This document shows, one piece after another, positions 22,101 to 57,069 of a stretch of DNA of 64,000 nt. The first letter of the stretch is position 1. Each line of letters begins with the position of its first letter. The notes beneath the pieces are model-generated. The model worked only from the letters and a program-made list of their open reading frames with translations. It ran no database searches and was not told the origin of the DNA. Origin of the DNA: Candidatus Aenigmatarchaeota archaeon (GTDB lineage: Archaea > Aenigmatarchaeota > Aenigmatarchaeia > GW2011-AR5 > JACRAC01); NCBI GenBank assembly GCA_016187395.1, contig JACPJV010000006.1, forward strand, positions 62,345 through 126,344, in the 5' to 3' direction. Position numbers and translations under genes: made by a program.

Positions 22101-25100
22101 ACCGTTTCTTCACTTGTTCTGATATCGCGAAAAGCGCTAAGCCTTGTTATTTCTATTTTGCCTAAAGTTTCTTCGCCTAATATTGTCTTCGGAATTCCAT
22201 ACGGCATTGGGTCTACGCTAAAACTTGCCGCAGGCTCGCTCTGTCCGTCCGGAATGATATCTACCATGATCATCGTTGGATTTGATGTCTCGCCTGTTTC
22301 GATTACAGCAGTATTCTCTTCATCAGACATGTATATCGTTTCCGAATACCACTGATACCCCCCGGGATCGTTATAGTATACAACTGCGCTTGCTCCGCCT
22401 GGCTGGCCCCAGTAGAGATTTCTTATGATTATCCTGTCGCTGCCTTCCTCTGTGAATTCAACGCTTCCTAAAACTGAATTATACTTCCTATGAGCTTTTC
22501 CTGTATCCATTCCCAGCCTTGTTGTGGCTAATCTCTCATTTCCGCGCAGCGCGGTTATTTCTATGAGAAGCCTCTCAGGATCGCCGAGCGGAAGCTCCTC
22601 CAGAATTAACTGACCCTGTATCCATCTTTCATTCACGATCTGCGTATAATCCCGATGAATCCCTTTCGGTGTGCTCGTGCTCCATGAAAGATAGTGAACC
22701 TCGTAGCTGTCTGCCTGAGGGTGCGCTCCCCATTTGAAATCCAAATCATACCATTTTCCTGTTAGATCTCTGATAGTAATTCCTTTTTCATAGGTAATCT
22801 TGGTGATTTCAACATTTGGCCACTGCAATCCAGGAGGTGCTGGTTTGGCTGGCGGTACAGGTGGTGACGCAAGGCATGACTTCCACGCATCCCAGTAAGA
22901 CATTATGCCAGGAACGTATTCGCGGGTTTCTGCAGGAGCATCAGCACCTGTCCAGTCACATCCTCCGGAATTGTATCCTGCCAGGGAATTCCGAACGCTG
23001 CCTTCGCAGGCTTCCTTGCCGCTGACAGCTCCGCTAATCAGGGCATCAAAATATCTTACGCCGCATTTTATGTTATCTGCCGGTTCTCCCGGAAAAACGC
23101 CAATATCCTTGCAATACGTATCCCATGTAAGAGATATGGCCGGGTCATTGACTATCTGCATCAGGCCGTGTGCGTTTTTCGGGCTAATTGCATACGGGTT
23201 CCAGCTGCTTTCCCAGCTTATGATGGCTGCTATCAATGCTTTCTGTTCTGTCTCGTTTGTCACAACTTCTTTTAGATTATTCGCATTTTTCAATGCCTCT
23301 TCAATTGCTGTCTCGTAATTATTATAATCACCCCTCTGTTTTGTGCATACCTGCGAAGCAGGAACCCTACTGACTGGCGTGCCGCTGACCTGCGTAAGCT
23401 CCAATTCTGCTGCCCTGCACGTGCGTGTATCCGCTCCTTTGCCTGTAAGGAACGTGTCCATTTCGCCTGCAATCTGCTTTACTTTCTGGTTGTCCAGCGC
23501 TTCAGCAGCTGCGTTGCACTGGTCTACTTTGCCTGACAATGCTCTCCAGTCAGCCCTGTCCTTAAGCCGGTTTATGCATGAATTGAACTGGGTGCATTTT
23601 ATCTTCAGCTCGCTTATTGCGACGCTTTTGAGGTCCCTGGTGCAGTAATACGGATCTGTCAAGGGCTTTGTTGTGCTTACATGGTTTAGGTCGTCGCAGG
23701 AGATGCGGCATTCTCCTTTCACTTCATTTTCTTCTACCTTAAGGCATAACCGCGTATTGTGATCTCTCTGAAAGTCAGGGCTCAGGCATACTTCACACGT
23801 AAGCGTTCCTTCCTGCTCCAGATCTGCAAAAACCTTGTTTTTCTCTATTCCAGTCTGCGTTTCTACCTTAATCCTTTCTCTAACAACAGCAGTGTCTGAT
23901 ATTATCTTTGCGATCTCGCAGCGCTCCCTGTCTCCTCCTGTCACGACTTTCTCTGCCTTGCCTTTGCCTTCTACTGTCTGTCCTTCTCTAGGTGATTGAT
24001 CCAAAGGCACGCATTCCCTGACAACCCTTCCGTCGCTTTTCCAGACCACGTGCGTGCCCCTTGCTTCGACGCATTTCAGGCAATCGCTGCCGAGCTTTGC
24101 AAATTCAGCAGCACTCCACTGCTTTGACAACTCAGACTGGCTTAATCCGCATGAGTTGGCAGAAGAATATTGCTCTGTCGTGATCTCGACCTCGCCGGCA
24201 CTGCATGAATCTGATGACAAGACGCATCTTCCCAGGCCTGTTTTTGGAATGTTTCCACCGCCTGGCAGAGGAACGTAGACGCCGCTGACTCCGGATATCT
24301 GGCCGTTCAATTCCTTGATCGGCGTTGCGCACCACTTGCCCGGAACGATCGGGAATGTAGATGAACACTGCTCTCTGGACGTGACTGATGATTTTCCTTG
24401 CGGGCATATCGGATCTGTCCTTACTGTCTGACCATTTTCAATATACTCACATTTTTTATTGAGAATTGATCCGTCATCGTCTCTGTCGCATATCGGAGTT
24501 GTTACTCTCCTGTCTGTATTATCCACACACGCTATTCCGAACTTATCGACGCTGCTTAGGCACGATGCCAAGGCTCTTGCATTATCCGGGCTTCTTGTCA
24601 GGCATTCGTCGCATGTCTGGGATTGCGACGCTATGGCGCGCTGCGCTGCAGTCCTTCTTTGCGCAGCTTCGTCCTGGATCTGCTCGACCATGCCTGCCAT
24701 TGTGTCCATGAATGACCAGAAGCCTGCGTTTGCCCAGTAAATGTCAAACTTAGACGGCTTCTGGCACGATTCTGCCGCAAGGCTGTAATCTGCAAGGTCG
24801 TAAAGCTGAGTGCTGTGAGCCATTGGCAGGGAGTCGAAGGTCCACCACGTGAATATAATGAACCTGATCTTGCAGAACTGGAAATTGATTCCAAAGAATT
24901 CCTTGATAGGAGTGTTGGCTGTGCAATATTGGGTAGGCACGAGGTCTTTCTGCTCTTGCTGGATCTCTCCTACCGCTACTTTTTTATCCAATTCAAGGTT
25001 ATGGTTTCGCTGCGCGTCTTCTATGGCCTGTATGTAGAGGAAACCGAAAACGCCCTGGAACAGCCTTTGCATGGCTCCGCCGCCACCGAATGCTTCTGTG

Positions 25101-27037
25101 AGCCATCCGTGCACAGAAGATGCGAGAATCGTGGCAAATAATTCATTCTGGTTTATAGATGCAGGGACGTACATATCAACAGTAGGTGGTGCCGGCACAA
25201 CTCCCAGCTTGTCCCTGGACCAGTTGTTCACGCTGTCCAGCGCTTTTGAAAAGCCTTCCAGCATCGTGCCTGATGCAGGCAGCAGCGCCCACGTAGGCTT
25301 GTTGCTGCAGTCATTTCCGATGCAGGGCTCGCACGTGCCGTCTATCTGGTATATGCATAAAGGCTTTGTGCCGCCGCTGCTTTTGAATGTGCGCCTGCTG
25401 ATCGCGCCCTTGACTTCAATTTCCTCGCCTGCGAATGTTGCTGTTGGGGTTACGTTGAAATCTGCTATGAGCATCGTATCAGGAAACGGGTCTATTTCCC
25501 TTAGAACAGGCGAGCCTGTGTAATTGAATTCCAGCCGCAGGACGCGCGCATTCACAGGCACAGACGAGAAATCAAAATATTGCACAAACTCCTTTTGCCC
25601 TGTGCCAAGCTTCTTGTTTACTTCGAATGTCTTGAGTCCTGCGGTAATCTTTGTCAGCGTGATATTATCATTCCTATCCCATGTTTCTAATGAAAGGCCG
25701 AAATGCGGATAATCCTGATCAAATTCTATTGTGCAAAATGCCTGCTTTGCTTTGGCAGACGTTGCGTTAGGCTGCTGATCTGCTTCCTGACCAGATGCCT
25801 CTCTTCCTGGCGGAGCTGTTCCTGGCTGGCCTGTGCCAGGGTTTGGTATAAGGGAGGGTGTTGCAAACTGCGGTAGTGGTGCAGATTCATCGGACGGTGC
25901 AAACTGGAAATAGGAATCCCTGTCCAGGTCAACCAAATGCCACGGGTTCTGGAATGAAATTCCCTGCTGCCTGGAGCGCGGCTCTGCAGGCGGCGCACAC
26001 TGTATGCTCCTGATGCTGATGGGTTTCGGCCCTTCTGTTGGCGGGGAGAATTGCGGCGGCTCGGGCAACAAAGGCTGCTCGCATCTCAGCGTGTCAGGCA
26101 TTGTATAGAATCTGGATAATGTATCATAGGACTGCAGGGATGGCTGGGGTATATATCCCGGCGTGCCCGGATAAAGAGGAGGGTAACTGCTTCCCAACGT
26201 CTGCTGCAAAACCCCGAATATGCGAAGCTGGCTCGGGTAGGGAACAATCCTGTACTCTATCGGAAGCGTGAAATCATTTTGTTCAATTACACTTTTTGGT
26301 ATGAATACGTTTGCTGAAAAAGGGCCTTCGCCGAACGCGGTTGTGCCGCTCACAGAGCCTGGCTGGCCAAATCCCGCGCTGCCAAGCCCGAAGCCGCTGA
26401 GACCTGACTGGGCCGCGCCCAGCTGTCCTGATCCCCTTACATTAACCTGCAATGCCTGCCCTCCGAACCACAGGCCGCGCACTGTTGCAATGTAATAATT
26501 CTGCCCTCCGACCGGCCTGCATTCTTTTTCCACAGGAAGGATGAAGAATAGTCCGAGATCGCGTATGTCATTCCATATGTCGTCTTCAAATTTGTAGCAA
26601 GCGCAAACCAGGGAGGATGTTCCGCACGCCACCTCTGGAAACGGCTCGGCATCTGTGACATACCCTCCGCTGCTGACCTGGTTCGCAGGCGTGCACGTCC
26701 CTCCTCCCTGCGGATAAACGTTTTTCTTGCAGAAGGAGTTGCACGCCAGGTCGCGGCTTATCTCGCAGTAACAGAAAGGCTTTTCCCTTGCGCACAGGGT
26801 AGCATCAGGGTGAAGCTGCTTTGCACCCACGTAATCCCTGGCATCGCTGCAGGAGCCGCCAACACCATAGAGCTGCTGGCAGCCTGTGCCGCACTTTTCG
26901 TCTCCAGGCGGCTGGGCGGCTGGCTGGGCGTATATTGGGGTGCCTAGAAGGAAAAATGCTAATATGACTAACAGCAGCGCTTTTGCAAAACGCATAGTAT
27001 TATTAGAAACCGGGTATAAAAATAGGTTTTCAGACAA
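16121..27037 (-). CDS. giant cell-surface protein (3,638 aa) with SLT lytic-transglycosylase domain, YWTD-like beta-propeller, CARDB/Ig-like repeats, discoidin (F5/8 type C) domain and C-terminal TM anchor
   Basis: Uninterrupted 10.9-kb ORF. N-terminal signal peptide (MRFAKALLLVILAFFLLGTPIYA). Cys-rich N-terminal modules. SLT signature ES-x-WNPYAIS-x5-GLMQ near aa 1275-1295 (nt ~22870-23290). Repeated YWTD/NHL-like blades ending RIYWSE (aa ~2165-2400). FGPTLAIDSDPSTFWESP discoidin domain (aa ~3460-3586). C-terminal hydrophobic helix then basic tail REKIRLWIEYKRS. Confidence 0.85.
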   Translation of the reverse strand: MSENLFLYPVSNNTMRFAKALLLVILAFFLLGTPIYAQPAAQPPGDEKCGTGCQQLYGVGGSCSDARDYVGAKQLHPDATLCAREKPFCYCEISRDLACNSFCKKNVYPQGGGTCTPANQVSSGGYVTDAEPFPEVACGTSSLVCACYKFEDDIWNDIRDLGLFFILPVEKECRPVGGQNYYIATVRGLWFGGQALQVNVRGSGQLGAAQSGLSGFGLGSAGFGQPGSVSGTTAFGEGPFSANVFIPKSVIEQNDFTLPIEYRIVPYPSQLRIFGVLQQTLGSSYPPLYPGTPGYIPQPSLQSYDTLSRFYTMPDTLRCEQPLLPEPPQFSPPTEGPKPISIRSIQCAPPAEPRSRQQGISFQNPWHLVDLDRDSYFQFAPSDESAPLPQFATPSLIPNPGTGQPGTAPPGREASGQEADQQPNATSAKAKQAFCTIEFDQDYPHFGLSLETWDRNDNITLTKITAGLKTFEVNKKLGTGQKEFVQYFDFSSVPVNARVLRLEFNYTGSPVLREIDPFPDTMLIADFNVTPTATFAGEEIEVKGAISRRTFKSSGGTKPLCIYQIDGTCEPCIGNDCSNKPTWALLPASGTMLEGFSKALDSVNNWSRDKLGVVPAPPTVDMYVPASINQNELFATILASSVHGWLTEAFGGGGAMQRLFQGVFGFLYIQAIEDAQRNHNLELDKKVAVGEIQQEQKDLVPTQYCTANTPIKEFFGINFQFCKIRFIIFTWWTFDSLPMAHSTQLYDLADYSLAAESCQKPSKFDIYWANAGFWSFMDTMAGMVEQIQDEAAQRRTAAQRAIASQSQTCDECLTRSPDNARALASCLSSVDKFGIACVDNTDRRVTTPICDRDDDGSILNKKCEYIENGQTVRTDPICPQGKSSVTSREQCSSTFPIVPGKWCATPIKELNGQISGVSGVYVPLPGGGNIPKTGLGRCVLSSDSCSAGEVEITTEQYSSANSCGLSQSELSKQWSAAEFAKLGSDCLKCVEARGTHVVWKSDGRVVRECVPLDQSPREGQTVEGKGKAEKVVTGGDRERCEIAKIISDTAVVRERIKVETQTGIEKNKVFADLEQEGTLTCEVCLSPDFQRDHNTRLCLKVEENEVKGECRISCDDLNHVSTTKPLTDPYYCTRDLKSVAISELKIKCTQFNSCINRLKDRADWRALSGKVDQCNAAAEALDNQKVKQIAGEMDTFLTGKGADTRTCRAAELELTQVSGTPVSRVPASQVCTKQRGDYNNYETAIEEALKNANNLKEVVTNETEQKALIAAIISWESSWNPYAISPKNAHGLMQIVNDPAISLTWDTYCKDIGVFPGEPADNIKCGVRYFDALISGAVSGKEACEGSVRNSLAGYNSGGCDWTGADAPAETREYVPGIMSYWDAWKSCLASPPVPPAKPAPPGLQWPNVEITKITYEKGITIRDLTGKWYDLDFKWGAHPQADSYEVHYLSWSTSTPKGIHRDYTQIVNERWIQGQLILEELPLGDPERLLIEITALRGNERLATTRLGMDTGKAHRKYNSVLGSVEFTEEGSDRIIIRNLYWGQPGGASAVVYYNDPGGYQWYSETIYMSDEENTAVIETGETSNPTMIMVDIIPDGQSEPAASFSVDPMPYGIPKTILGEETLGKIEITRLSAFRDIRTSEETVSIRAEWLPVTGVDSYSYQAIMVQDETVVEACFQELFGDETSNTCSGTSPPGFVPETAEAALFAYDSSGELIAIGTAAAVFYAISAAPSEVSFSDEPLAYDPSVDTPATFDPLLQNKAELQFGTRYPAGSPLPPQPVYGTRDTRARPYEMLARSYQTQFFFQMRELLTRGESIYRRSSVRQPGLGAGFEGKCEQLDTVGSLGVHDRTRQVLVGKLDHVLPLPSEYHTIEGAIVPETADVDIIVIDQNGTVVENSTIQANFTGAEGVFTHRFVVPMPGNYLVLAKPASEVSSPGLEVISAQDRPPPAITSQSAVCSPEGVPAEFALTITEPAIQSSSTEYLLEVLSPQAGAGFVAISGEGASIEPAASVVVNPDSTVAVPMQSSSPGPISVRITNNKGFSTVKQTNHQSLNNADVDIRAKISSASQSSLREWGYPLVVNSSVPQGCAPYLFALQGEAPGSGWTSDFETPAGEPVGAVDLSKGQQELIMNVFPTGGSIGTYTGYAMISESLPEPVSSEIAADALFIATDQNNFIYYTTTEGRLRSVSTGGATGIDYSIGSLPGGIALDSGNIYFAAAGAISKTAKNAFTPSDMARGIGNATHVAVDNQNAYWLDGGKIKRVVLNANAQNCAGANCLFASASAKGLALDSRFVYYTEDDSVKRIPKDGGSEEILYKNKAGINDVFVAGDDIYAAVNGGTGKGKIVKIAGDGTPADPLSGGSNGDVPIAIGRPHISSIAVYSNRIYWSESGAIYSSSLSQISDYEALVYAYQPGAPLITIVPGRMLAPAGEAAEYDVRIDNLADTALTLDISLSEIPAGWSISADTSEVSLQRKGASGDSQSFKVEVASPPGAQISDSINWCVTAKTTGISGQACSSYVISQSLRPSVSWQLAEGYSLPARPRVPVAFDITVKNENPPEFAAQSPVNVEFDVPDGWEAEFVFGNDFLQEINAEFGPQESLQMELFITPSRTAVDGDHKVFVVAELGGGVRGVAEITIPVKGCGNYVCEPERGETSQSCAADCSFNAGIFKCPVFGSGAGFDYYTCMQPKDNTTEMSVDIALEQTLFGQEVRACRRGATPEQCLASQCGITRTGISGTLKDCAAELDPTGRGVFGDNYNNEVACPTDVEDDIYFYIRGEDVTGTNIQSYRSVNYSFACPFYNLERLASAASRWSSIVQNCPSVVARRISEGERVCADILKEACAWREDHLQLLDAALLNPSKSSIESLLEDTESLEERIQARIATSCIGIPGLEILGIVPPGTFVGETAKISMSVANSFGEDYRGFASCEVARSDGTMVEPKSSCTLFRSGETPVEIPIFLDSAGTWTINSCTVHGDLASAISEQECEQAPEFSSKNVGMSFTVTAPETSIVSPREGAVLSGTASVEAVIRGTFDEIDFSVSANSRQCAGAPLFSMQAEGSGDKKTYTAAWNTASFADKSYWLCVIAKAGTTSTFLGSVFVAVNNYDFLLQPSSEQKTVSAPVDHEITITNTGFSDSYSISCTSNASATLQAGSSTKQCGAGQIQASIQTGNSLVAKISLPKRTSLTTLTVINNQSEQKQSILIITEGQGNLAPAIANARAEPSSVQQGGSVKFYAELRDAESDNITRAEACLDSICSEKLCTMSRDGAGYSCTAAVGKNPGSYTWYVSARDSAGSSSTSAVQQLVVTPPGGGCAYTCLPSCTDNVQLCLDREQREGTCTAGTVCCRENTMPACTPSQEGCGITIEKSTCVFDPVKQKYVASVQAVRTGGNYTVISVSGVQSQRLYAESMSYQADFSDSDPKSISIGVYGSTYSEPLICSETGTIICGGAQDFYEPAGLSLSIANAFAKSSAAGFGPTLAIDSDPSTFWESPLPAWIKVDLSQEMSVNGIGIYSQIDRPRSFSIEVSKDDSTYLEVADVDNAQYERDWNVTYFGPATARWVRINIDEAERADRSIVKIFELRVYGTRIGLAGDQGAGGAAQGEFPWALAAVIAIVIIVVIVILINREKIRLWIEYKRS

Positions 27038-28438: not shown

Positions 28439-28834
28439 TCACAACATCTCTTTTATTTCCTCCCTGCTCAGGAGGTTGCGGTGCTTCTGGTCGTCCCAGA
28501 ACTTGCGGACCGCAAAATAGAAGTATTCGTAGAGTGCAGGAATGTCCTTTGCGAGAATTACCACGCCCCTGTCCATGATTTCCGCGCGGATGTAGAGCGG
28601 CAGGTTTTCAAAAATACGCACATCGTACTTTCCGCCAAGCCTCTGCCACACCCTGCTCAGGAGCGCATTCCTGTCTTTGCACTCCGGCGCAACTATCGTG
28701 ACATCTATGTCGCTTCTGGGAGTCGCCTCTCCTGTTGCGTGCGAGCCGAAAAGCATCACTGCCATGATTTCCCTATCCTTTTCCAGAAACGCGAAATCCT
28801 TCTTCAGGATACTCACAATCTTTTTTTCAGCCAT
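28439..28834 (-). CDS. minimal nucleotidyltransferase (MNT, MntA-like antitoxin)
   Basis: GSHATGEATPRSDIDV (GS...D.D) nucleotidyltransferase motif. Overlaps the HEPN gene by 22 nt. Confidence 0.7.
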   Translation of the reverse strand: MAEKKIVSILKKDFAFLEKDREIMAVMLFGSHATGEATPRSDIDVTIVAPECKDRNALLSRVWQRLGGKYDVRIFENLPLYIRAEIMDRGVVILAKDIPALYEYFYFAVRKFWDDQKHRNLLSREEIKEML

Positions 28835-29244
28835 GACTTCACCTCTTTTTCGAACGATTTGAACTCCGGTGAGATTTTTTTGATGGAGCTGAAAGCAGTT
28901 TCCTCGTCAACTGTATTGTACCTGTGAATGAGCACATTCCTCAGGCCATTGGAATCCCTCAGTATGGCCGCTGTTTTTCCTCCTGCAATATTCTTCTCCT
29001 TAAGAAATGTTATGTTGCTGTAGTCGTCCTTTGGAAACGCGCCTTCATCTTTTACAATCATGGCGCAGATGTCTATAGCAGCTTCTGAAAGCTCCTGGAA
29101 TGCCTTGAATATTGCCAGCCGCGTCTTCTCGTTAGCCTCGTCCTTTAGCCATTCTGAAATCTCTGAATACCTCTTTTCCATAAGCTCCAGTTTCTCTTTG
29201 TACCTCGTTGCCCTTGCAGCATCCATGCTATCAATAGTAGCCAT
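28813..29244 (-). CDS. HEPN-domain protein (HepT-like toxin; DUF86)
   Basis: R-x4-H-R-Y motif (RNVLIHRY) near C-terminus. Paired with the MNT gene. Confidence 0.65.
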   Translation of the reverse strand: MATIDSMDAARATRYKEKLELMEKRYSEISEWLKDEANEKTRLAIFKAFQELSEAAIDICAMIVKDEGAFPKDDYSNITFLKEKNIAGGKTAAILRDSNGLRNVLIHRYNTVDEETAFSSIKKISPEFKSFEKEVKSWLKKRL

Positions 29245-29363: not shown

Positions 29364-29410
29364 TTTCACTATATAGTGCTGCAAGGAATAATCATTTTCT
29401 TGTTTCACTC
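29364..29410. repeat. short palindromic repeat, copy C of the 'cactatatagtgctgcaaggaata...ttcttgtttcac' family
   Basis: tttcactatatagtgctgcaaggaataatcattttcttgtttcac immediately 3' of the TadC-like gene. Preceded at 29299-29321 by hairpin caggaggaacttcgttcctcc. Confidence 0.55.
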
Positions 29411-31428
29411 TAGACGTTGAACTGGGTGAGGGGACCGAAGATCAGCAGCGATATCACGGATATGGCTGCGTAGACTATGGGCGATACAAAGAACATGCCT
29501 GAGAGGATTTCAGAACGCCTTATCGGATCTTCGCCTACCTCTACTCCTGAGAGAAGATATCCGTACAAGAACAAGGACTGCGCCACGAAAATAGATACTA
29601 CGACAATAAACTGGAACGGCGTAATGACCAGCTCGCCGAATGCAAAAGAGCCTCCTACAGGCAGCGATGCAAAGCCTGATATCGCGCTTTGCTGGAGCTG
29701 CAGCTGGCCAAGTATTCTTATTATGACGATGGCCATGGTTGCTATAACGCCTGATATAAGAGGCGTGAGGACATATGCCTGAAACTTTATAGAGTTTGTA
29801 ACGCCATGCATTGACCTTTGCACGTATTCCTGCGTATTATGAAGGTCTTTCAAATAGCGCGATATGGACAGCATTGCCGTTCCTGCGTTTGCAGGGCCTT
29901 TTTTGGCTGCCTCTGTTATAGCCTTCATCACAGATTCGATAAGCGTGGATGGGTAGAATCTTATCGCGCCCTGCTCTTTGTCGAAGAATGCCTGCTCAAA
30001 CGTCATCGAGAATTTCTGCATGTTCTGTGCTGCGCGAAGGAACAATTCCCTTATCTTGAGCCCCTCCATCCTTTGTATAGACTCTATCATGGCTTTTTCT
30101 ATAGGCACTCCCGACCTGATTCGCGTGCCCAGCTGGAACAAAGCCTCCTTGAACTCATCTTCTATGGATCTTATGTCTTCCCGCAGCTTCGAACGGCCGC
30201 GGCTTATCAGGAGAAAATAGGTTCCCGGCGCAAGCGTTATTGCCAGCGTGAACAAGAGCGCTGAAAGAACAGAGAAACTGAGGACTGATGTCCCGCCAGC
30301 TTCGACAAAGCCGGCGGTTTCGCTTTCCTGGCATACAATTTTTCCAGCCTGCTCTGTGCACGCAAGGCCTGCACTATAAAGAAATAACGCAAGTGCTGCA
30401 AGAATTATCCCGACCAGAAAAGCCACGGCTGCTGCAGATACAAGCCTTTTGCCCATGTAGAATTTTCCGGGAGGCGGCAGCCTGGGGTGCCTGCTGACAT
30501 CTATCTTGCTGAATGTCACGGGCCTTTTTTCCAGGATGCTTGCCATGAGGAAGAAAAGCATTATCGGCAGGAGTATGTCGTACATCACAAGAAGGGGGAC
30601 AGGCCCTACGGAAAGGAATATTGATATCACAGGAAAAAGAACGAGCCCCATCACAGGCAATATGAGGCCCATTGCGTTCACAGCCATCAGCGGCATGCGC
30701 AGGTTTGATATGTAATTCTGGGATGTCTCCTTGTTTCCGCTAAGGACTATCCTGACAGCCTCGTCCAGCAATGAGTGGAATCTTGCCCCGCTCTGCCTGG
30801 TTGAATTTATGATAAGGCCCACGGCCTCCCCGAACTCCCTGTTCCCTTTCCATTTTTCAGAGTAATCCAGCAGCGCATCCTCAACGCTGAGATAATTTCC
30901 AACACGCACATCCCACAGGAGTTTTGCAAGCTCTACCTGCATTCCGGCTGTTGTGTTTCTCGCTGCAAATTCTACAGCACCTTCCAGGCTTGGCGTGTTT
31001 CGCATGTAGATTACCATGTACAGGATTGCGGAAATCATGTCTGCTCCCACTGTCATTTCGTACCTCTTCTTGAGCCTCCTGGGCGCTGTATAGAAATAAT
31101 AAGCAGCTGCAATGCCTGCCAGCGATATGGACGTTACAAAAAGGATGTCCAGCGCCATTCCAGCAAAGGCTGCAATTATGTAGATTATCACGGGCACAAA
31201 GGAAAGGATTGCAGTAAGTGCTGTGAGAGACGCAACGTCCCTGGGCTTTATGTTAAGATGGGCGAATTCTATCGCTCCCTCCAACCGCTTGTTTTTTGTA
31301 TCTATTTTGAGAAAACTTCCCGCCCTTCTTGCAAGCCTTTCATAAAACGTGTCTTCCCTTATCTTAACAGGGCTGCGAAACTCCCTGTAAGACTCTGAAA
31401 TTATATCCTGCTCCGGCACCGGAATCAA
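29410..31428 (-). CDS. type IV pilus/archaellum-family membrane platform protein (TadC/FlaJ/GspF-like)
   Basis: 672-aa polytopic protein with two GspF-like cytoplasmic helical domains, each followed by TM segments. Directly downstream of the secretion ATPase. Confidence 0.65.
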   Translation of the reverse strand: MIPVPEQDIISESYREFRSPVKIREDTFYERLARRAGSFLKIDTKNKRLEGAIEFAHLNIKPRDVASLTALTAILSFVPVIIYIIAAFAGMALDILFVTSISLAGIAAAYYFYTAPRRLKKRYEMTVGADMISAILYMVIYMRNTPSLEGAVEFAARNTTAGMQVELAKLLWDVRVGNYLSVEDALLDYSEKWKGNREFGEAVGLIINSTRQSGARFHSLLDEAVRIVLSGNKETSQNYISNLRMPLMAVNAMGLILPVMGLVLFPVISIFLSVGPVPLLVMYDILLPIMLFFLMASILEKRPVTFSKIDVSRHPRLPPPGKFYMGKRLVSAAAVAFLVGIILAALALFLYSAGLACTEQAGKIVCQESETAGFVEAGGTSVLSFSVLSALLFTLAITLAPGTYFLLISRGRSKLREDIRSIEDEFKEALFQLGTRIRSGVPIEKAMIESIQRMEGLKIRELFLRAAQNMQKFSMTFEQAFFDKEQGAIRFYPSTLIESVMKAITEAAKKGPANAGTAMLSISRYLKDLHNTQEYVQRSMHGVTNSIKFQAYVLTPLISGVIATMAIVIIRILGQLQLQQSAISGFASLPVGGSFAFGELVITPFQFIVVVSIFVAQSLFLYGYLLSGVEVGEDPIRRSEILSGMFFVSPIVYAAISVISLLIFGPLTQFNV

Positions 31429-31501: not shown

Positions 31502-34500
31502 TTATACCCTAATCATATAATCCTTCAGCCAGACACTCCACCTCTTGTATATCTCTGGGCTGTCCAAAGTTCCGGATTCCCTCAGAACTTCATCCATTGC
31601 AGTATGAAAGGCGGAATTGCTTTTCACCATTGATTCTGCCTCGATCAGCTCAGGCTTGCGCTTTCCTTCCTCAGCAAGCGTATGCAAGATGCGGGAACGT
31701 AAATTCACGTTGTCCCAGACTGCTTCCCAGTTCAGGCTCCACTCCTTGACTCTTGATGCAATATTGTTCAGCACTTCGGATTCTCCTGTCAGCAGGGTCT
31801 GCGTGGGTTTTAGCTTGTCTTCAGCTGCATTGTACTGCATCAGAGGCACGAATCCATTCTCCTGCAGAGGATCCTTTTGCCAGTGCTTCCGGACTTCGGT
31901 TATCTCGACGATCCTCCGGAACGTTCTCAGGCCATCCGGAGACCGCAGGGTGTTTGCGATTATCACTATGTCCGTTGCCTTGAACGAGGTGGGAGGAACG
32001 CCCAGATCATTAACAACGCGGTCAAAGACGCCGTATGCAGACTCGCCGTGTATGGTTCCTGCCACCACGTTTGCCAGAGCTCCTATCCTCATTGCCTCAT
32101 ATAACGCAAGCGCCTCGCGGCTGCGGACCTCACCTACTATCAGGGCTGAATCTCCCAGACGCAGCGCTGTGCGCAATGCCTCTTCTGCAGGCAGCTCTGT
32201 TTCTATGCGCGTTATAACCGATCGAGACTTCAATCTTTCAACGTTGAATCCTATATCGCGAAGAGAGTTGACAGGCAGCTCTAGAGTGTCTTCCACCGTA
32301 ATCACCCTCACGTTGGGCATTATCTGCACCATGCAGCTGCCCAGGAAGGATGTATTATGCGCTATTATGCCGTTTGCCACAAAATTCGGGCTGCCCTCCA
32401 CTTCGATATCATAGACAAACTCCTCTTCGGGTTTAATGTGCTCTATCTTTGCTATCTTGTCCCAGAATATATCAGAATCCGCAAGCTGCTTTATCATTTT
32501 TATGTTCCTTTCGGCCTCGCTGATTTCTCTGCATATTATTTCCAGTCCTTTGCATATGCCCTCCACAATCTTCAGCCGTGGCCGTCTGTATCTGCCTCTT
32601 GCTATTCCGGAAATAGTTCCTACGCTTATTCCTGATGCCTCTCCCATGCGCTTATGCGATATTAATTGCACGGCATGCCTGAGTGAGTTGAGCATTTTTG
32701 TTTCGTCGGAAATTTCTGCTCTCATACCGAAATATCCGAGAATTTTTCCCGATGTTTCGGGTCGCGGATCCGGACATCCTTTCTTGTATTTTTTGAATAT
32801 TCGTGCGCTTATCCCTGCTCTTCCGGCAGCTTCTGCAAGATTTGCGGGCAAAGGATTGTCTTTAACAAGATTTGCGAGCATCCTGGTTTTGCGCGCATAC
32901 TCGGTTAAATCATAATGCAAACTATAAATCAGGCTTAAATTATGCAGCCTTCTTTCCGCAAGAGATACGAATTTTCCCAGCTTTTTTCTTCCAAAAGAAC
33001 AAGTTTCGTTGCAATATACCCAAAACTCCCCGTGGGTTTCTATCTCCAGTGCCTTTATTGTTTTCTTCACAACAGCGCCTACGCCGGGCACTGTATCCAC
33101 GTTTGTGTAATGTCCCTTTCTGATTTTCCCGATTTTGGACTGCAATATAGCATGCTTTCTCGGGTGCAAAAATCCTATTTCCCGCGCGAAAATGTCAATG
33201 TTTTCGCCTGTAATCATGATTCTATGATATTCCTTTCCCTTCACAATCTTAGGTTTCAGAAAGCTTATTATTCCGAATTTTAGAAGCATAAGCTGCATTT
33301 TCTGTGCAACATCGCGGCTTGCTGTAGCGAATTCTATGCCCCTGTCTCCTACGCTACCGTCGCAATCGAAATATGCGCGTATGAATCTGCTTGTATTTTC
33401 TTTGCTCATTCCCAGCGTCCATGATGGCAATACGAAGTTTTCTGACTTCTTTCCGATGGGGAAGCCAAAAACCGATCTGAAAACCTTTGCCAAAGCATTC
33501 GACCGTATGACAACCATAGGCGAACGCTTTTTCGGGAAATTTGTACTTGGATCATGCCCGAAACATTTTTTCATCAGTAATCCAGCCCTGTTTCTCATTT
33601 CTTCCACGGTATTGAAGAATGCCACTTCTGCCATATCCACATGGCCATCACCTGCCAGATAACCAAGGAGCTCTGCGAGTTCGGGGGTAATCTTCTTAGG
33701 CACTTTGACTGCAAAGCCGGCTGTCTTGCTTTTTATCCACAATTCTTCCGGAGAAGCTTTCAGCAGGCTTAGAGGCACTGCCTTTGCTTTCTCATCCATT
33801 TTGACATAAATGCCTTCTTCGTGCTGCAAGGGCGCTAAATCGAAATTCTCAAAACTGTTGGCGTGGGGGAGCATCCTCGCAGCGGCTATGCAGCTTCCTT
33901 CGCAAAGCATTTCGGCTCTGATTTCCTTTATTCCGTTATCAACAGTAAAATAGATGTGTTCCGGGGTTGTTGTTATTGTCCTTCCAGAAGCTGTTTTTAT
34001 CCTAATAAGTTTTTTCGGCGCTCTTCTCTTATATAATGCCTTTACCTTATGCTTTTTCATTCTCATATCCTCTCCAAGAGAAGTTACGTGCAAATCATCT
34101 GGAGTGCAAAGAAAACCATCCTCGGTGTTGATTGCCTTTTCCTTTATTTGGTATTCTACTATATCCTTAATCTTAACAAGCTCGCCGTTTCCCATAGAGA
34201 TTATGCTGTTTCCCTCTACACACTTTCCGCTGCTGCGCGTACCTGCCACGAGGATGGTCCGTGCGCCGTCAATCAGAAACCATATAAGCCCTGCGCTGAA
34301 GGCATCAAGCATCTTTGTATTTATGAAAAGGGGCAGTGTCCAGGGTTTTTGCCTGAACCGCCTAAGTGCGAAGGCAATGCCGTCCGGCGACAGCGGCCTT
34401 GTTATCGCAGCTACTCTGGCGCGACCTCCCTTCACTTCTATTTCTGTATCCAGGACAGGGTTTGCCTCGTCCAGCGGCCTTCCGCTCTGTATCCTGAAAC

Positions 34501-35641
34501 GCGTTGCCCATGCCTCTGCATCACTGGCGCTCGGATAAATGTTTGTTATACAGTCTCCAAATTCTGCGTGACGGATGAATACAGGAATTGCACCGACAGG
34601 GGAGTTTATGAGGATGTCCTGGATATTTTCATCTGCCAGCAATATTTCTATTATGCCCATTCCTGCTGTGTACCTTGCAAGTATGTTAGCAAGCCTCTGC
34701 ATCCCCTGCTCATCAATATCCTTGTTCTCGGTCTGGGATATGTCCCTGATAAGATCCACGGCAAGGTTGAACATGTTTTTGCGGAAAAGATCGGGCTCTG
34801 CTAATTCTGCTTCAGACGGCTCGTGCGCCCCTATGTACCTTCTGGCTCTTTCCAGAATTTCATATTCCTCGTAATTCATATTGAACTCTCCTGCTGACAG
34901 GTGATAGAATCTCTCCACCTTTCCTGCGATGCGAAATATTGAAATTATGGCGTCGCCGACCCTGTAGCGGTCGATGAGCTCTGCGTTTTCCGGAAAGCTT
35001 GTCTCCAGCCTCGTATACATGAAAGTAGGCCTCGTTGAGGGTCGGAACAGCTTTCTATAGATCGTCCTTCCCCTTATTTTCAGCTCCCTTGCGCGCTTTA
35101 TCATTGCGGTTTCCTCGAACATCTTTCGAAGGGGCATGAGGACTTTCAGCAAATAGTGAGTAAAACAGACGCGACATGCGTTCTTGTCGCCACCCTTTGT
35201 TTCCTCTATATCTTCGCCTTCTTTCAGCTTTTTGATTTTATGCTTTATCATCCTCGTTTCTCTTACAACTGTGAGGTATGCAGAAACAGGGTCGTATTTT
35301 ATGTTTTCTATTGCTGCCCTGATCTTTGCAAAGGCGTTGGGAAGATAATCCTCGCAATACGAGCCTTTCAGTATGTTTTTCAGCGAGATGAAATTCTGCT
35401 TTCTTATTTCCTCTATCAGGCCGGCTATTTCGAAGAGCATCCTGCACTCTTCATCGCTATACGTGTATTCGCGTGCCTCTGCGACAACGGTTATCCTCGG
35501 CTCTGCCTTTATTTCCAGGATTTTACTTATGAGAGCGCCCATGCTGGGAGCGTAATCCTCGAAGCTTTGCCCGTACGGCACGTTGATTACAAGCCTTTTC
35601 GAATAAGGATCGTAGTCTATGCTGAATCTGCCCAATGCCAT
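31502..35641 (-). CDS. FlaI/VirB11/TadA-family secretion ATPase interrupted by a LAGLIDADG intein in the Walker A loop
   Basis: N-extein ends ...ILVAGTRSSGK and C-extein starts TSFLGSCMVQIMP..., reconstituting the P-loop GTRSSGKT. Intervening 624 aa begin with Cys and end ...VANGIIAHN, with two LAGLIDADG motifs (LLGYLAGDGHV; FIRAYFDCDGSV). Confidence 0.8.
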   Translation of the reverse strand: MALGRFSIDYDPYSKRLVINVPYGQSFEDYAPSMGALISKILEIKAEPRITVVAEAREYTYSDEECRMLFEIAGLIEEIRKQNFISLKNILKGSYCEDYLPNAFAKIRAAIENIKYDPVSAYLTVVRETRMIKHKIKKLKEGEDIEETKGGDKNACRVCFTHYLLKVLMPLRKMFEETAMIKRARELKIRGRTIYRKLFRPSTRPTFMYTRLETSFPENAELIDRYRVGDAIISIFRIAGKVERFYHLSAGEFNMNYEEYEILERARRYIGAHEPSEAELAEPDLFRKNMFNLAVDLIRDISQTENKDIDEQGMQRLANILARYTAGMGIIEILLADENIQDILINSPVGAIPVFIRHAEFGDCITNIYPSASDAEAWATRFRIQSGRPLDEANPVLDTEIEVKGGRARVAAITRPLSPDGIAFALRRFRQKPWTLPLFINTKMLDAFSAGLIWFLIDGARTILVAGTRSSGKCVEGNSIISMGNGELVKIKDIVEYQIKEKAINTEDGFLCTPDDLHVTSLGEDMRMKKHKVKALYKRRAPKKLIRIKTASGRTITTTPEHIYFTVDNGIKEIRAEMLCEGSCIAAARMLPHANSFENFDLAPLQHEEGIYVKMDEKAKAVPLSLLKASPEELWIKSKTAGFAVKVPKKITPELAELLGYLAGDGHVDMAEVAFFNTVEEMRNRAGLLMKKCFGHDPSTNFPKKRSPMVVIRSNALAKVFRSVFGFPIGKKSENFVLPSWTLGMSKENTSRFIRAYFDCDGSVGDRGIEFATASRDVAQKMQLMLLKFGIISFLKPKIVKGKEYHRIMITGENIDIFAREIGFLHPRKHAILQSKIGKIRKGHYTNVDTVPGVGAVVKKTIKALEIETHGEFWVYCNETCSFGRKKLGKFVSLAERRLHNLSLIYSLHYDLTEYARKTRMLANLVKDNPLPANLAEAAGRAGISARIFKKYKKGCPDPRPETSGKILGYFGMRAEISDETKMLNSLRHAVQLISHKRMGEASGISVGTISGIARGRYRRPRLKIVEGICKGLEIICREISEAERNIKMIKQLADSDIFWDKIAKIEHIKPEEEFVYDIEVEGSPNFVANGIIAHNTSFLGSCMVQIMPNVRVITVEDTLELPVNSLRDIGFNVERLKSRSVITRIETELPAEEALRTALRLGDSALIVGEVRSREALALYEAMRIGALANVVAGTIHGESAYGVFDRVVNDLGVPPTSFKATDIVIIANTLRSPDGLRTFRRIVEITEVRKHWQKDPLQENGFVPLMQYNAAEDKLKPTQTLLTGESEVLNNIASRVKEWSLNWEAVWDNVNLRSRILHTLAEEGKRKPELIEAESMVKSNSAFHTAMDEVLRESGTLDSPEIYKRWSVWLKDYMIRV
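32354..34225 (-). other. intein (624 aa) with LAGLIDADG homing-endonuclease domain, inserted in the ATPase P-loop
   Basis: Codon boundaries checked on the nucleotide sequence: Cys codon tgt at 34223-34225 (minus strand), terminal Asn codon at 32354-32356, followed by Thr (+1 nucleophile). Confidence 0.75.
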
Positions 35642-38503: not shown

Positions 38504-40165
38504 TTATCTGTGGGTGAAGACTGCTGTCACTTTTGATTTTGATATTCTTTCCAGCCTGCAGAATCCAAAGCGTTCGAACTGTATAACTTCATTTTTCTTT
38601 GCAAGCTTTGCTATGCCAGGCTCCCCAAAGCCGCTTAGCGTCCCTTCTGGCATTATCACGTTCACTTTTATATTATCCCCTGCAGGCACCCAGTGGATTC
38701 TCTGGATGCTCTTGTTCTCTGTTCCGGTGACCTTTGCTCTCTCTTCAAGAACAACATTGCAGAATCCCATTAACCTCACTTCGCTGCCCGAGAACCTTTC
38801 AAGATCGCCTTTTTCAACAAAAATTTTGCCCTCTGCCTTGATTTTCCTGAAGCCCATGTCTACCTCCGGATGCAGCCTTAGCTTTGCTTCCCTTACAGGC
38901 ACTTTGTCGAGAGTTATTTTTGCAGGATTTTCGATGAAAAAGAAACGCTTTGCCTCAGCATCTATAATCTTGCGGTTGTAGGCAGCAAGATTCTCAAAAG
39001 CAACAGCGCTGTCCGATGACGTTGCTCCGATGCTTACTATAAGCCGCCGCAGAGCGTCGGGCTGAAAGCCGCGTCTTCGCAGCGACTGCAATGTTGCCAA
39101 GCGCGGGTCATCCCACCCTGCAAAATTTTTCTGCAGTATGCCCTCTCTGATAAGGGACTTGCTCATGACCATGCCCTGCAATGAAAGACGACCCAGGATC
39201 TTTACGTGGGGGTAATGCCATCCAAAGGCCTTGTAGAGATAGCGCTGCTTCGCTTCGTTGGTCGCATGCTCCTGGCCGCGGATTATATGCGTTATGCCAA
39301 GCAGATGATCATCTATAGCAGAAGCGAAATTGAACAAAGGCCATATCTTTGCTTTTGAGAAAGGATGCGCCGGCTTGTCCACGATGCGAAAAGCAGGCCA
39401 ATCCCGCACAGCAGGGTTCTTGTCCTGCATGTCTGTTTTTACGCGTAAAACAGCCTTGCCCTCTTTGTAAGAGCCTTTTTTCATCTTGTTCCAACGTTCT
39501 GCATTGCTTTTCTTTGCCAAATCCCTGCACCCGCACGCCTCTCCTTCGTCCCTCTTTTTTTTCCAGCTTTCTCCGCTGCACGTGCATACATACGCCGCTC
39601 CAATCTTCACAGCCTCATCCGCGTATTTTTCATAAATCTTCAGCCGCTTCGATGCTATGAACTCTCTTTGAATTATTATTCCGAGCCACTTCAGGTCTTC
39701 CCTAATCCATTTGTAGAATCTCTTTTCAGGCACCTTTACCTTCGGGTCTGTGTCGTCGAAACGCAGGATTAATTTCCCGCCATAGCGCTTGGCATATTCG
39801 TCGCTTATGATTGCGGGGCGTGCGTTGCCCAGATGCAATGCTCCGTCCGGGTTAGGGGCAAAGCGCAGGATTACCTTTTTCCTTTCAGCGCTTGGCAGCG
39901 ATGGCAGCCCCTCCTTCTCTTTTTTTTCAGGCACAAGGGGCTCCTCAAGCTTTTCAAGAAGCTTTTTCTGTTCCTCCACGCTGAGGGCATTCACTTCATC
40001 AACAACCTCGTCCACGACGCCGCGCGCCTCCTGAACTTTTTTTCGCAGCTCTGGCTCTGCTGCAAGCATCTTGCCTAAAACGCTGTCAGCGCGCGCCTCG
40101 CCGCCGTGATGGACGGCGTTCTGGAGGGCGTATCTTTTGGCAAGGGTCTGCAGATCTTTTGGCAT
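38504..40165 (-). CDS. gltX: glutamyl-tRNA synthetase, archaeal type
   Basis: HLGNARPA (HIGH-class motif) and VMSKSL (KMSKS) motifs. 553 aa. Confidence 0.9.
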   Translation of the reverse strand: MPKDLQTLAKRYALQNAVHHGGEARADSVLGKMLAAEPELRKKVQEARGVVDEVVDEVNALSVEEQKKLLEKLEEPLVPEKKEKEGLPSLPSAERKKVILRFAPNPDGALHLGNARPAIISDEYAKRYGGKLILRFDDTDPKVKVPEKRFYKWIREDLKWLGIIIQREFIASKRLKIYEKYADEAVKIGAAYVCTCSGESWKKKRDEGEACGCRDLAKKSNAERWNKMKKGSYKEGKAVLRVKTDMQDKNPAVRDWPAFRIVDKPAHPFSKAKIWPLFNFASAIDDHLLGITHIIRGQEHATNEAKQRYLYKAFGWHYPHVKILGRLSLQGMVMSKSLIREGILQKNFAGWDDPRLATLQSLRRRGFQPDALRRLIVSIGATSSDSAVAFENLAAYNRKIIDAEAKRFFFIENPAKITLDKVPVREAKLRLHPEVDMGFRKIKAEGKIFVEKGDLERFSGSEVRLMGFCNVVLEERAKVTGTENKSIQRIHWVPAGDNIKVNVIMPEGTLSGFGEPGIAKLAKKNEVIQFERFGFCRLERISKSKVTAVFTHR

Positions 40166-55246: not shown

Positions 55247-55590
55247 GAAAATCACCTTCAGACTCTAAGATTTCATATTCAAAGGTTTTTATAGGCGGAA
55301 GCCTCCACATAAAACCTCCGCTTTTAATGCAAACCAACTTAATAAACGGCATATGATATGTTGGTTTGCAGTATGCTGAACAACTAAACCATATGGCGAT
55401 TATTTAGTTGTTCAAGCATAAGCGGAGGATACAAGGAGGAACAACGTTCCTCCTGTACAGCAGGAGCTATGCTCCTGCTTGTATGCTACAGAAGGCTTCC
55501 GACATGCTTTGCAAGCATGAATCGAAGATTCATGCTGCACCGCAAGAGCTTCGCTCTTGCTTGTGCTCAAAGAAACCCACGCCTTTAGGC

Positions 55591-56463
55591 ATGGGAGTAT
55601 ACGGAGCAAATCATATGGATATGCAAAAGGAAGGCGCAACAGAAGCGCATCGCGAAAGAAGCGCGAAAACAGCAGCTGCTTCAAAGGCTTATAACATTTA
55701 TAAACTTTTCGGTGATAACAATTTAGTGACAGTTATGACAACAGCTACTTTGCCTGAACTGACCGGGAATCTTGTCGTGCCAGCTGCCGCAGGCAGCTAT
55801 CCTGCATTGGGCGCAGCCTACAGGCACGAAGGTTCTTCCATCGATTACTCACCATGGCTTGTAAGAACAGGCAAAAACTATTATGGCTCCAAAGCAGAAA
55901 TCCCGGAAGGCATAAGGATGTCCACGGCAGCTGAAGAGCTTGCTCTGCAGCTTGCCCTGGAGAAAGCAGGCAACGACCCAAGAAATGCAGAAGTTTTCAA
56001 CGACCTTTTCGCCAGAAATGAAGAGAAATATTACGCATGGCAATGGACAGAAACAGGGCTCCGCGTGCCAAAGGGCCGCAAGCCTGATGCTTATGAAACT
56101 GATGCGCAGGGCAGAAAATACTGGCAGCGAATATTGCTTATTGGCGACCAGGAAATAGGCGACTTCCCTGTTCCAGAAGGCAATGGAATGGTAATTGTCG
56201 AATGGGACGAGGTTTCCGGACTGCCCAGAGTAACAGAGCAAATAGCTTATCCTCACGAGCCATACACAACACATTTCTGGTTTAATCCTAATCCTGATAA
56301 AGACAAATTATCAGGTCACTACGACGTTGCCATCGGGCGCAGGGGCGCCTGGCCTCACGGTGTGGACGCCAGGTGCCTGAGCGTCGATGCGTCCTACGGG
56401 CGCTGGGATGCGGATTCCGACGGCGGGCTTCCGCCCTGTTCGGGGGTCGCTTCCGCAGATTGA
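55591..56463 (+). CDS. DGR target protein (variable C-terminus; CLec-like VR ending ...GRW.A.SDGG)
   Basis: The last ~40 codons contain the variable repeat (56326-56435). Start uncertain (ATG at 55591 or 55615/55621). The longer frame from 55408 is rejected because it spans an intergenic hairpin array. Confidence 0.6.
   Translation: MGVYGANHMDMQKEGATEAHRERSAKTAAASKAYNIYKLFGDNNLVTVMTTATLPELTGNLVVPAAAGSYPALGAAYRHEGSSIDYSPWLVRTGKNYYGSKAEIPEGIRMSTAAEELALQLALEKAGNDPRNAEVFNDLFARNEEKYYAWQWTETGLRVPKGRKPDAYETDAQGRKYWQRILLIGDQEIGDFPVPEGNGMVIVEWDEVSGLPRVTEQIAYPHEPYTTHFWFNPNPDKDKLSGHYDVAIGRRGAWPHGVDARCLSVDASYGRWDADSDGGLPPCSGVASAD
56326..56435 (+). repeat. DGR variable repeat (VR) followed by GC hairpin (IMH-like)
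   Basis: Aligns to the TR with 12/12 cleanly alignable substitutions at TR adenines. Immediately followed by GGCGG-gctt-CCGCC hairpin absent from the TR. Confidence 0.75.
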
Positions 56464-57042: not shown

Positions 57043-57069
57043 AATAGTTCTGGCTGGCCAAGACTCATA

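Follow-up and report, generated by a model that had tools for sequence, protein, structure and literature searches.

The Walker A motif of a DPANN-type ATPase of the T2SS/type IV pilus (T4P) family, encoded on the minus strand of a contig from a Candidatus Aenigmatarchaeota archaeon, is interrupted between its Lys and Thr residues by what is, with little doubt, a canonical class-1 intein with a nested two-motif LAGLIDADG endonuclease and a probable HTH accessory domain. Our analysis establishes the boundaries, catalytic residues and fold of this element as well as its lack in homologues and the patchy occurrence of the allele, and the intein is probably competent for splicing and homing. No second intein was found within the window, i.e. 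the whole 64,000-nt stretch of DNA analysed here.

The interrupted ATPase gene

The precursor gene (positions 31502..35641; all features described here lie on the minus strand) stays open over 4.1 kb and, according to the ORF list, encodes 1379 aa plus a stop. Its N-extein of 473 aa (34223..35641) is colinear with intein-free homologues and ends in ILVAGTRSSGK, i.e. it includes Walker A through the Lys, while the 283-aa C-extein (31505..32353) starts with Thr+1 (TSFLGS). Between them lies the intein (32354..34222), which runs from Cys1 to His622-Asn623 and is defined by the junction codons, by Pfam and NCBIfam models and by the match of its AF2 model to PDB structures. At the N-terminal junction, GGA AAG (Lys, 34225-34223) is followed by TGT (Cys1, 34222-34220), and at the C-terminal junction CAT AAT (Asn623, 32356-32354) is followed by ACA (Thr+1, 32353-32351). 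The interrupted motif thus reads GTRSSGK/C…AHN/TSFLGS (slashes mark insertion points here and below), just as quoted in the initial annotation, and excision in silico rebuilds GTRSSGKTSFLGS and leaves a spliced extein of 756 aa. The junction codons and the contiguous P-loop after removal confirm that the insertion sits exactly in the P-loop (Walker A) of a secretion-type ATPase. Because the Cys1 codon starts at 34222 and the Asn623 codon ends at 32354, the length is 623 aa and not the 624 aa at 32354-34225 given initially, a range that took in the extein Lys codon.

The host protein scores 56 bits against Pfam T2SSE (cut-off 24.9), and the expected motifs can all be identified by alignment: Walker A across the splice junction and, within the C-extein, ITVEDTLEL (Asp box), LIVGEVRS (Walker B-type motif) and AGTIHGES (His-box region). 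It is not FlaI proper (116 bits with the NCBIfam equivalog NF058587 vs a cut-off of 550); with 756 aa it is longer, a paralogue specific to DPANN. Among the best 120 extein homologues, 115 are about 740 aa long, and the spliced extein shares up to 60% identity over 99% of its length with such ATPases from DPANN MAGs. The nearest relatives of the host protein thus come from DPANN (Aenigmarchaeota, Woesearchaeota and others) and not from methanogens, in which the initial annotation had placed the known inteins of this site class. Intein-free homologues show an unbroken GTRSSGKTSFLG, and in three of them that were aligned the sequence runs without a break as GTR(S/G)SGK(T/S)SFLG; the alignment of the exteins, which the initial annotation had named as a check, thus finds the segment absent and the P-loop contiguous.

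Directly downstream and on the same strand lies a gene for a polytopic membrane protein of 672 aa (29410..31428), a candidate TadC/FlaJ-type platform protein. Its match to Pfam T2SSF is weak (17.9 bits, under the cut-off of 25.2), and we tentatively regard it as a probable partner of the ATPase. A 3638-aa surface protein also adjoins the ATPase gene.

Splicing, endonuclease and accessory domains

Intein and LAGLIDADG profiles score far above chance level. Searched with the host protein, Pfam Intein_splicing was found at 1.3e-25, and the NCBIfam models TIGR01445 (intein_Nterm, 62.9 bits) and TIGR01443 (intein_Cterm, 35.3 bits) clearly exceeded their cut-offs of 24.5 and 15.6, respectively, so that comparison with intein HMMs supports the original call. 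Residues 1-125 (33848..34222; TIGR01445), the N-terminal HINT half, are beta-rich in the AF2 model, with a pLDDT >90, and include block A Cys1 and block B GRTITTTPEHIYFT (33944-33985), which holds the TxxH motif as T86-P-E-H89. The C-terminal part (residues 585-623, 32354..32470; TIGR01443) comprises block F, FVYDIEVEG...NFVANG with D605, and block G, IIAHN. Cys1, the block B TxxH, D605 of block F, H622-N623 and Thr+1 together are the marks of a class-1 intein, and in nine related inteins C1, T86, H89, W587, V603, Y604, D605, H622 and N623 are invariant. The AF2 model of the whole intein (pLDDT 86.6, pTM 0.81; low confidence at residues 140-160) found TliVMA (7qss, E 1.5e-24), PI-TkoII, PhoVMA, PI-PfuI and PI-SceI, all of them inteins with an endonuclease, as its top PDB matches, and Foldseek superposed it on mini-inteins with an rmsd of 1.1-2.4 Å across about 120 columns, i.e. 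it has the HINT fold.

The nested endonuclease domain (residues ~171-375, 33098..33712; Pfam LAGLIDADG_3, 2.9e-20) contains both LAGLIDADG blocks reported initially: LLGYLAGDG at residues 185-193 (33644-33670) and, within (IRA)YFDCDG(S) at residues 281-290, IRAYFDCDG (33356-33382). Each retains its acidic residue (D192 and D288), and G191, D192, G193 and K259 are invariant in the nine related inteins. Residues 171-340 align to the endonuclease of the TliVMA intein (E 7e-23), and Foldseek comparison with I-DmoI and I-Tsp061I gave a target-normalised TM of about 0.7; two helices with acidic ends within an alpha-beta-beta-alpha-beta-beta-alpha fold identify a two-motif monomeric LAGLIDADG enzyme.

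The endonuclease is followed by an all-helical accessory domain of about 209 aa (residues 376-584, 32471..33097), which precedes the C-terminal HINT part and accounts for the extra length of the intein. About 100 of its residues have no counterpart in an alignment with the approximately 500-aa Asp-box inteins of close relatives, and across related inteins the accessory segment varies from 61 to 317 aa. Modelled alone, it reached a pLDDT of 87.2, and its net charge is +13. It appears to hold at least one XRE/Cro-C1-type HTH (residues 521-561, 32540..32662), for which the HTH_3 profile (cut-off 23) gave 24.9 and 23.4 bits with the accessory domain or just this unit as query, and 19.6-21.3 bits with the whole protein or whole intein; HTH_3 was also found in six of eight related accessory domains (best 1.3e-14). 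Foldseek with the accessory domain alone returned local matches to C.Esp1396I, C.Kpn2I and HipB with probabilities of 0.94-0.98, all at E >0.1 and none at E < 0.1. A putative second HTH-like unit (residues 458-500, 32723..32851) is suggested by helices 462-469, 473-480 and 488-497 of the AF2 model and aligns to GIS/GVN-containing units of relatives, and the domain probably comprises more than one such unit. Since this middle unit had no Pfam match when scanned alone and a local alignment of residues 445-502 with 505-566 gave no sign of internal duplication (z = -0.2 against shuffles), we claim one HTH and not a proven tandem array.

Related inteins and the state of the element

The closest counterparts of the element are P-loop inteins of other ATPases and GTPases, which provided the best matches among 1.84 billion representative proteins. 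They comprise the same allele in DPANN ATPases of the AGTRSSGK type, the inteins of FlaI/VirB11-like ATPases (GGTxSGK/C...HN/T.LLN) and those of MCM, SRP54/FtsY and SMC/Rad50-type proteins. All share the Walker A position (GK followed by T or S), the class-1 chemistry with Cys1 ... HN and Thr/Ser+1, and the nested LAGLIDADG endonuclease, but identity is only 25-36% over the full length, and they differ in the number of accessory helical/HTH units and in total length (483-711 aa). The P-loop is known as a hot spot for inteins, and a 2015 count gave 21 inteins in archaeal VirB11/COG0630 ATPases (PMC4760082). Literature searches for inteins in combination with FlaI or with secretion ATPases returned nothing specific.

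TliVMA and PhoVMA (7QSS, 7QSU, 7QST), PI-TkoII (2CW7) and PI-PfuI (1DQ3), the best PDB matches by both sequence and structure (14-27% identity), likewise combine HINT, a LAGLIDADG endonuclease and an accessory domain before the C-terminal HINT part, although their hosts and sites differ (V-ATPase A subunit, DNA polymerase and RNR). The accessory domains of TliVMA and PI-TkoII are also HTH-like and affect DNA cleavage (PMC8966425). In comparison with these, the domain of the P-loop intein is far longer and has long connecting helices.

The initial annotation had referred the insertion to the KlbA site class, which does not fit. KlbA inteins belong to class 2, with Ala1 and a Cys+1 that attacks the N-terminal junction directly (PMC2807308). 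The Mja KlbA intein (PDB 2JMZ/2JNQ) is a 168-aa mini-intein whose host is likewise an archaeal ATPase of the T2SS/VirB11 family, but it is inserted next to the His box, MNTGHDG/A.../(C), as also seen in the 2JMZ construct, which starts MNTGHDG/ALAYDE. The intein described here lies far upstream, and its Cys1/Thr+1 as well as the uninterrupted His-box region rule out the KlbA type. Examples of KlbA-site inteins from DPANN archaea (Micrarchaeia) also possess a LAGLIDADG endonuclease and an HTH_3 accessory domain. A further allele, at the Asp box (...IITxED/SVTGD...AHN/TLELP), occurs in the same ATPase family and the same DPANN lineages and shares the LAGLIDADG endonuclease and Thr+1, but lies 24 residues further downstream than the P-loop allele, starts with Ser1 and is about 500 aa long without the long accessory domain. 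It occurs commonly among close relatives and is more frequent than the P-loop allele (about 22 vs 9 loci among the best 80 GTDB loci). The T2SS/T4P ATPase family has at least three independent intein sites, one in the P-loop, one in the Asp box and the KlbA site at the His box.

A pattern scan of GTDB found the P-loop site occupied in the genomes of at least nine species, which belong to four to five DPANN groups, and the search of 1.84 billion representatives found it occupied in eight clusters. The occupants range from a 188-aa mini-intein (L004) through one of 326 aa whose endonuclease has decayed (L005) to full forms of up to 711 aa, and many empty sites exist alongside them; such a mixture is what a homing cycle would be expected to produce. 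Given this range, 623 aa is ordinary for the allele, even though the intein was at first called large. Same-allele inteins are 29-33% identical and their exteins 36-56%. The closest intein found is 42% identical in the endonuclease region and about 32% identical at full length, and the search of representative proteins returned no close relative and thus no sign of recent mobility. The exact 1379-aa sequence is absent from the gene-position collection. A chimera of 36 N-extein and 125 intein residues, used as query in a word-index search for same-site alleles, yielded 24 candidates and zero matches. The GC3 of the intein (0.45) is lower than that of the exteins (0.55-0.59), which is consistent with a foreign origin but could partly reflect its Lys-rich composition (10% Lys).

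It is unlikely that we are looking at a decaying insertion, i.e. one that is dead for splicing, leaving the gene effectively a pseudogene, or that has kept splicing without homing. Within the accessory domain, the first helical unit seems truncated, with an 11-column gap at helix 2 of the relatives' HTH; together with the low model confidence at residues 140-160 and the lack of a near intein relative, this would fit decay. Nevertheless, the reading frame is uninterrupted, all known splicing residues, both acidic residues of the endonuclease and the conserved Lys259 are intact, as are the Asp box, Walker B and His box of the extein, and those forms at this site that have clearly decayed (e.g. 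L005 and L004) bear little resemblance to it.

Less likely still is a domesticated or conditional intein, in which splicing gated by redox, temperature or partner binding would act as a post-translational switch for pilus or attachment assembly, or in which the excised, HTH-bearing intein would act as a DNA-binding regulator. The P-loop is split before splicing, so that ATPase activity hinges on it, the Cys nucleophile is accompanied by several further Cys residues, the apparent XRE-type HTH is a fold typical of transcription regulators, and conditional splicing is documented for further P-loop and ATPase inteins, such as those of RadA and DnaB (PMC4513877, PMC6195587). On the other hand, the closest relatives of the host protein are entirely without a P-loop intein, and the allele is sporadic, with decayed and mini forms, which argues for a selfish element over a conserved regulator; moreover, HTH accessory domains are already accounted for as DNA-contact modules of endonucleases (PMC8966425). 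The combined proposal, that splicing licenses a DPANN pilus/attachment ATPase while the released intein regulates by DNA binding, appears highly improbable. Finally, the idea of a native domain inserted in the ATPase without splicing is rejected on sequence evidence and has virtually no likelihood, given the block A Cys and terminal HN, whose lack the initial annotation would have counted against an intein, the block B TxxH, block F Asp and Thr+1, the HINT and LAGLIDADG fold, homologues that have a contiguous P-loop without the segment, and the established role of the P-loop, from which a 623-aa insert at the Walker A Lys/Thr would be expected to split the nucleotide-binding loop.

Proposed splicing and homing, and their meaning

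For the apparently intact class-1 intein, we infer splicing, endonuclease activity and homing, the splicing steps by analogy with characterized class-1 inteins. Translation would yield a single 1379-aa precursor chain, in which Cys1 would undergo an N-S acyl shift and the resulting thioester would be attacked by Thr+1, i.e. the P-loop Thr itself. Cyclization of Asn623, assisted by His622, and an O-N shift would then release a 756-aa ATPase, its GTRSSGKT loop restored, and a free 623-aa intein. As initially proposed, the pilus ATPase depends on protein splicing, since its P-loop cannot be intact beforehand. The free intein would be expected to cut intein-less alleles at the highly conserved P-loop sequence, with the HTH accessory domain contributing additional DNA contacts, after which repair would copy the intein into the cut allele. 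The reconstructed empty site reads GGTACGCGCAGCAGCGGAAAG/ACATCCTTCCTGGGCAGCTGC; the candidate homing target is expected to be ...GGTACGCGCAGCAGCGGAAAG/ACATCCTTCCTGGGC..., and a candidate synthetic cleavage target can be written as ...AGCAGCGGAAAG/ACATCCTTCCTG....

The P-loop intein is an ordinary addition to the known kinds of intein and leaves the current understanding of inteins unchanged. Its importance is modest: clean and apparently intact, it relies on the catalytic Thr of the P-loop as +1 nucleophile, and its host protein is non-replicative, namely a DPANN surface-filament motor ATPase. Both the 188-aa mini-intein at the same site and the Cys1/Thr+1 intein may be of interest to protein engineers. 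If the switch or regulator reading were true, the variable XRE-type HTH arrays (0 to about 4) of DPANN P-loop inteins would represent an undescribed route to retargeting or to gaining a host function. Regardless, the full, decayed, mini and empty states of a single site constitute a natural series for the homing cycle and for the evolution of accessory domains.

Boundaries and identity of the intein

The precursor (1379 aa) is encoded by an ORF on the minus strand (31502..35641), and the junctions of the intein interrupting its P-loop could be located at the nucleotide level, i.e. ...GGA AAG↓TGT GTA... on the N-terminal side (Lys 34225-34223, Cys1 34222-34220) and ...CAT AAT↓ACA TCC... on the C-terminal side (Asn623 32356-32354, Thr+1 32353-32351). 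Since these junctions put Lys outside and Cys1 at 34222-34220, the intein comprises 623 aa (32354-34222, minus strand) instead of the 624 aa initially annotated at 32354-34225. The boundary at 32354 was correct, while that at 34225 took in one extein codon, as minus-strand translation of the range gives K followed by CVEGNS...IIAHN. Removal of the intein leaves a 756-aa protein reading ...ILVAGTRSSGKTSFLGSCMVQ....

The initial annotation of a LAGLIDADG intein in the Walker A loop of a secretion ATPase is borne out by the junctions, by profile matches and by intein-free homologues. The precursor matched Pfam Intein_splicing (1.3e-25), LAGLIDADG_3 (2.9e-20) and T2SSE (3.1e-15), all past curated cut-offs, and in NCBIfam intein_Nterm scored 62.9 bits against a cut-off of 24.5 and intein_Cterm 35.3 bits against 15.6. 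When the intein was aligned with eight relatives, the residues found invariant included, for splicing, C1, the block B pair T86 and H89, D605 of block F, and H622 and N623, and, in the endonuclease, G191-D192-G193 (first LAGLIDADG motif) and K259; D288 is kept in the second motif, IRAYFDCDG. With C1, H622 and N623 in place, the segment differs from a native insertion devoid of the block A Cys or the terminal HN.

An AlphaFold2 model built on the alignment of related inteins (mean pLDDT 86.6, pTM 0.81) found endonuclease-containing inteins as its top PDB matches, i.e. TliVMA (7qss, best, 1.5e-24), PI-TkoII (2cw7), PhoVMA (7qst), PI-PfuI (1dq3) and PI-SceI. Mini-inteins superposed on its HINT part at an rmsd of 1-2.4 Å, and I-DmoI-type endonucleases matched the middle domain. 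Taken together, the intein is genuine and probably active, with splicing predicted, and represents a further example of an already known kind of element. No second intein was found with a profile from related inteins across the whole window.

Accessory domain and intein length

The extra length of the intein lies at residues ~376-584, between the endonuclease and block F, a position corresponding to the ‘accessory domain’ of Beyer et al. (PMC8966425), where TliVMA and PI-TkoII carry HTH-like folds (PMC8966425). This domain has a net charge of +13 and was predicted with good confidence to be all-helical (pLDDT 87.2 when modelled alone). Scanned alone, it matched HTH_3 at residues 521-561 (24.9 bits, Pfam gathering score 23), as did six of the eight related accessory domains (best 1.3e-14), and Foldseek returned only local XRE-type matches (C.Esp1396I, C.Kpn2I and HipB) with high probability and non-significant E-values. 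The model and the alignment to relatives suggest another HTH-like unit (residues 458-500), for which neither a profile match nor significant similarity to the unit at 521-561 was found; the unit nearest the endonuclease appears truncated.

Relatives contain none to about four HTH-like units and therefore range from 483 to 711 aa, so that a length of 623 aa is nothing out of the ordinary for this allele. With same-site inteins spanning 188-711 aa, the intein cannot be regarded as unusually large, as had been proposed.

The host ATPase and its surroundings

The spliced extein has thousands of homologues, the best 120 being 51-60 % identical where identity was given and mostly ~740 aa long, with named sources nearly all from Aenigmarchaeota or other DPANN MAGs. 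Since the host passes Pfam T2SSE yet scores only 116 bits against the FlaI equivalog model (cut-off 550), FlaI itself is ruled out, and the profile matches identify a DPANN-type paralogue of pilus/secretion ATPases whose N-terminal region is long.

On the same strand lie a polytopic membrane protein (672 aa) with a weak T2SSF (TadC/FlaJ-like) match and a 311-aa ORF. Inserted between these two are the overlapping genes of a HepT/MNT toxin-antitoxin pair (28439-29244, minus strand; HepT-like RNase, PF01934, 2e-22; MNT-type nucleotidyltransferase, Polbeta, 5e-14). Downstream of the ATPase/TadC-like pair, a giant ORF (16121-27037, minus strand) encodes a 3638-aa surface protein with SLT lytic-transglycosylase, F5/8 type C (discoidin) and NPCBM-associated domains, an N-terminal signal-like segment and a C-terminal membrane anchor, plausibly a host-attachment or cell-wall-attacking protein of an episymbiotic DPANN archaeon.

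Elsewhere, an archaeal Nre-family protein (53126-54370, minus strand; Nre_N 9e-83, Nre_C 1e-34) and a class I Glu/Gln-tRNA synthetase (38504-40165) mark the window as archaeal. A tRNA matched by Rfam at 49890-49957 (minus strand; 33 bits against a gathering score of 29) could be an archaeal tRNA that is atypical, degenerate or interrupted by an intron; ARAGORN found no tRNA in the whole window. A probable diversity-generating retroelement occupies the plus strand (56326-56366, 56679-56849, 56847-56887, 56974-58131), with an Rfam RT-16 RNA match (67 bits) just upstream of the reverse-transcriptase ORF (56974-58131; RVT_1 7e-22). A 41-nt repeat connects the 3′ end of ORF 55408..56463 with the spacer preceding the reverse-transcriptase ORF. 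Its two copies differ at five positions, each of them an adenine in the RT-proximal copy, as is characteristic of template/variable repeat pairs; the repeat is short, the alignment ending at ~41 nt.

Insertion sites, distribution and proposed mechanism

When the precursor was aligned with homologues with and without inteins, the intein-free proteins showed an uninterrupted P-loop, GTR(S/G)SGK(T/S)SFLG. Five of the 120 closest homologues (P0003, P0038, P0104, P0113 and P0119) instead carry a ~500-aa intein beginning with Ser1 at the Asp box, 24 residues downstream (...IITxED↓SV(T)GD...AHN↓TLELP). A third site was found in Micrarchaeia FlaI-like proteins (TAMNTGHDG↓ALSGD...VVSN↓CFGTIHA). Because the Mja KlbA construct 2JMZ begins MNTGHDG↓ALAYDE and aligns to this intein (3.9e-22), the third site is, by sequence, the KlbA site. 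KlbA inteins are class-2 inteins with Ala1 and Cys+1 (PMC2807308), whereas the present intein is of class 1 and sits in the P-loop; hence the previously assumed KlbA site class does not apply. Counting the KlbA site, the family has at least three insertion points.

When 1.84 billion representatives were searched with the intein (full HMMER search), 5850 matches were obtained, and junctions were extracted from the 150 listed. None of these exceeded about 40 % identity, and most of the junctions matched were P-loop insertions (G-x4-G-K↓C...HN↓T/S), located in MCM, SRP54/FtsY-like and SMC/Rad50-like proteins and in many FlaI/VirB11-like ATPases (GGTxSGK↓C...HN↓T.LLN). In the literature the P-loop is known as a site repeatedly occupied by inteins, and 21 inteins in archaeal VirB11/COG0630 ATPases were counted in 2015 (PMC4760082). 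Eight of the 150 (P0129, P0134, P0136, P0141, P0143, P0147, P0156 and P0249) share both ATPase family and site, with the consensus (A/V)G(T/S)R(S/G)(S/A)GK↓C...AHN↓TS(F/L)L(G/Q)(S/A).

A GTDB pattern scan (one genome per species) yielded at least 586 loci encoding relatives. Among the best 80, nine carry the same-site intein (Nanohalarchaeota, 1; Nanoarchaeota, 1; Woesearchaeota, 3; Parvarchaeota, 1; Micrarchaeota, 3), while the Asp-box allele is commoner (~22; L007, L008, L010, L012, L013, L015, L019-L021, L023, L024, L027, L029, L031-L034, L037-L039, L062 and L075) and the remainder are empty. Same-site forms comprise a 188-aa mini-intein (L004), a 326-aa intein with endonuclease remnants (L005) and full forms of 529-711 aa. 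The natural mini-intein (Woesearchaeota MAG CAZNIQ010000005.1, match from 3001) occupies the identical site (Cys1...AHN↓T) with a short helical linker in place of the endonuclease and, as a compact Thr+1 mini-intein, might interest protein engineers.

Compared with the window protein, same-allele exteins are 36-56 % identical and inteins only 29-33 %; GC3 is 0.45 in the intein vs 0.55-0.59 in the exteins, and intein GC is also below that of neighbouring genes. Together with the sporadic distribution, in which empty sites coexist with full, decaying and mini forms, this is the pattern usual for homing elements.

While boundaries, catalytic residues, fold and comparative distribution were obtained here, the reaction order is taken from the established class-1 pathway: an N-S shift at Cys1 would come first, followed by transesterification by Thr+1, i.e. 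the host's Mg-coordinating P-loop Thr, cyclisation of Asn623 assisted by His622, and an O-N shift yielding intact GTRSSGKT. It is plausible that the LAGLIDADG domain, helped by the HTH accessory domain, mediates homing at the conserved GTRSSGK↓TSFLG-coding sequence. With its Walker A loop interrupted, the precursor should rely on splicing for ATPase function.
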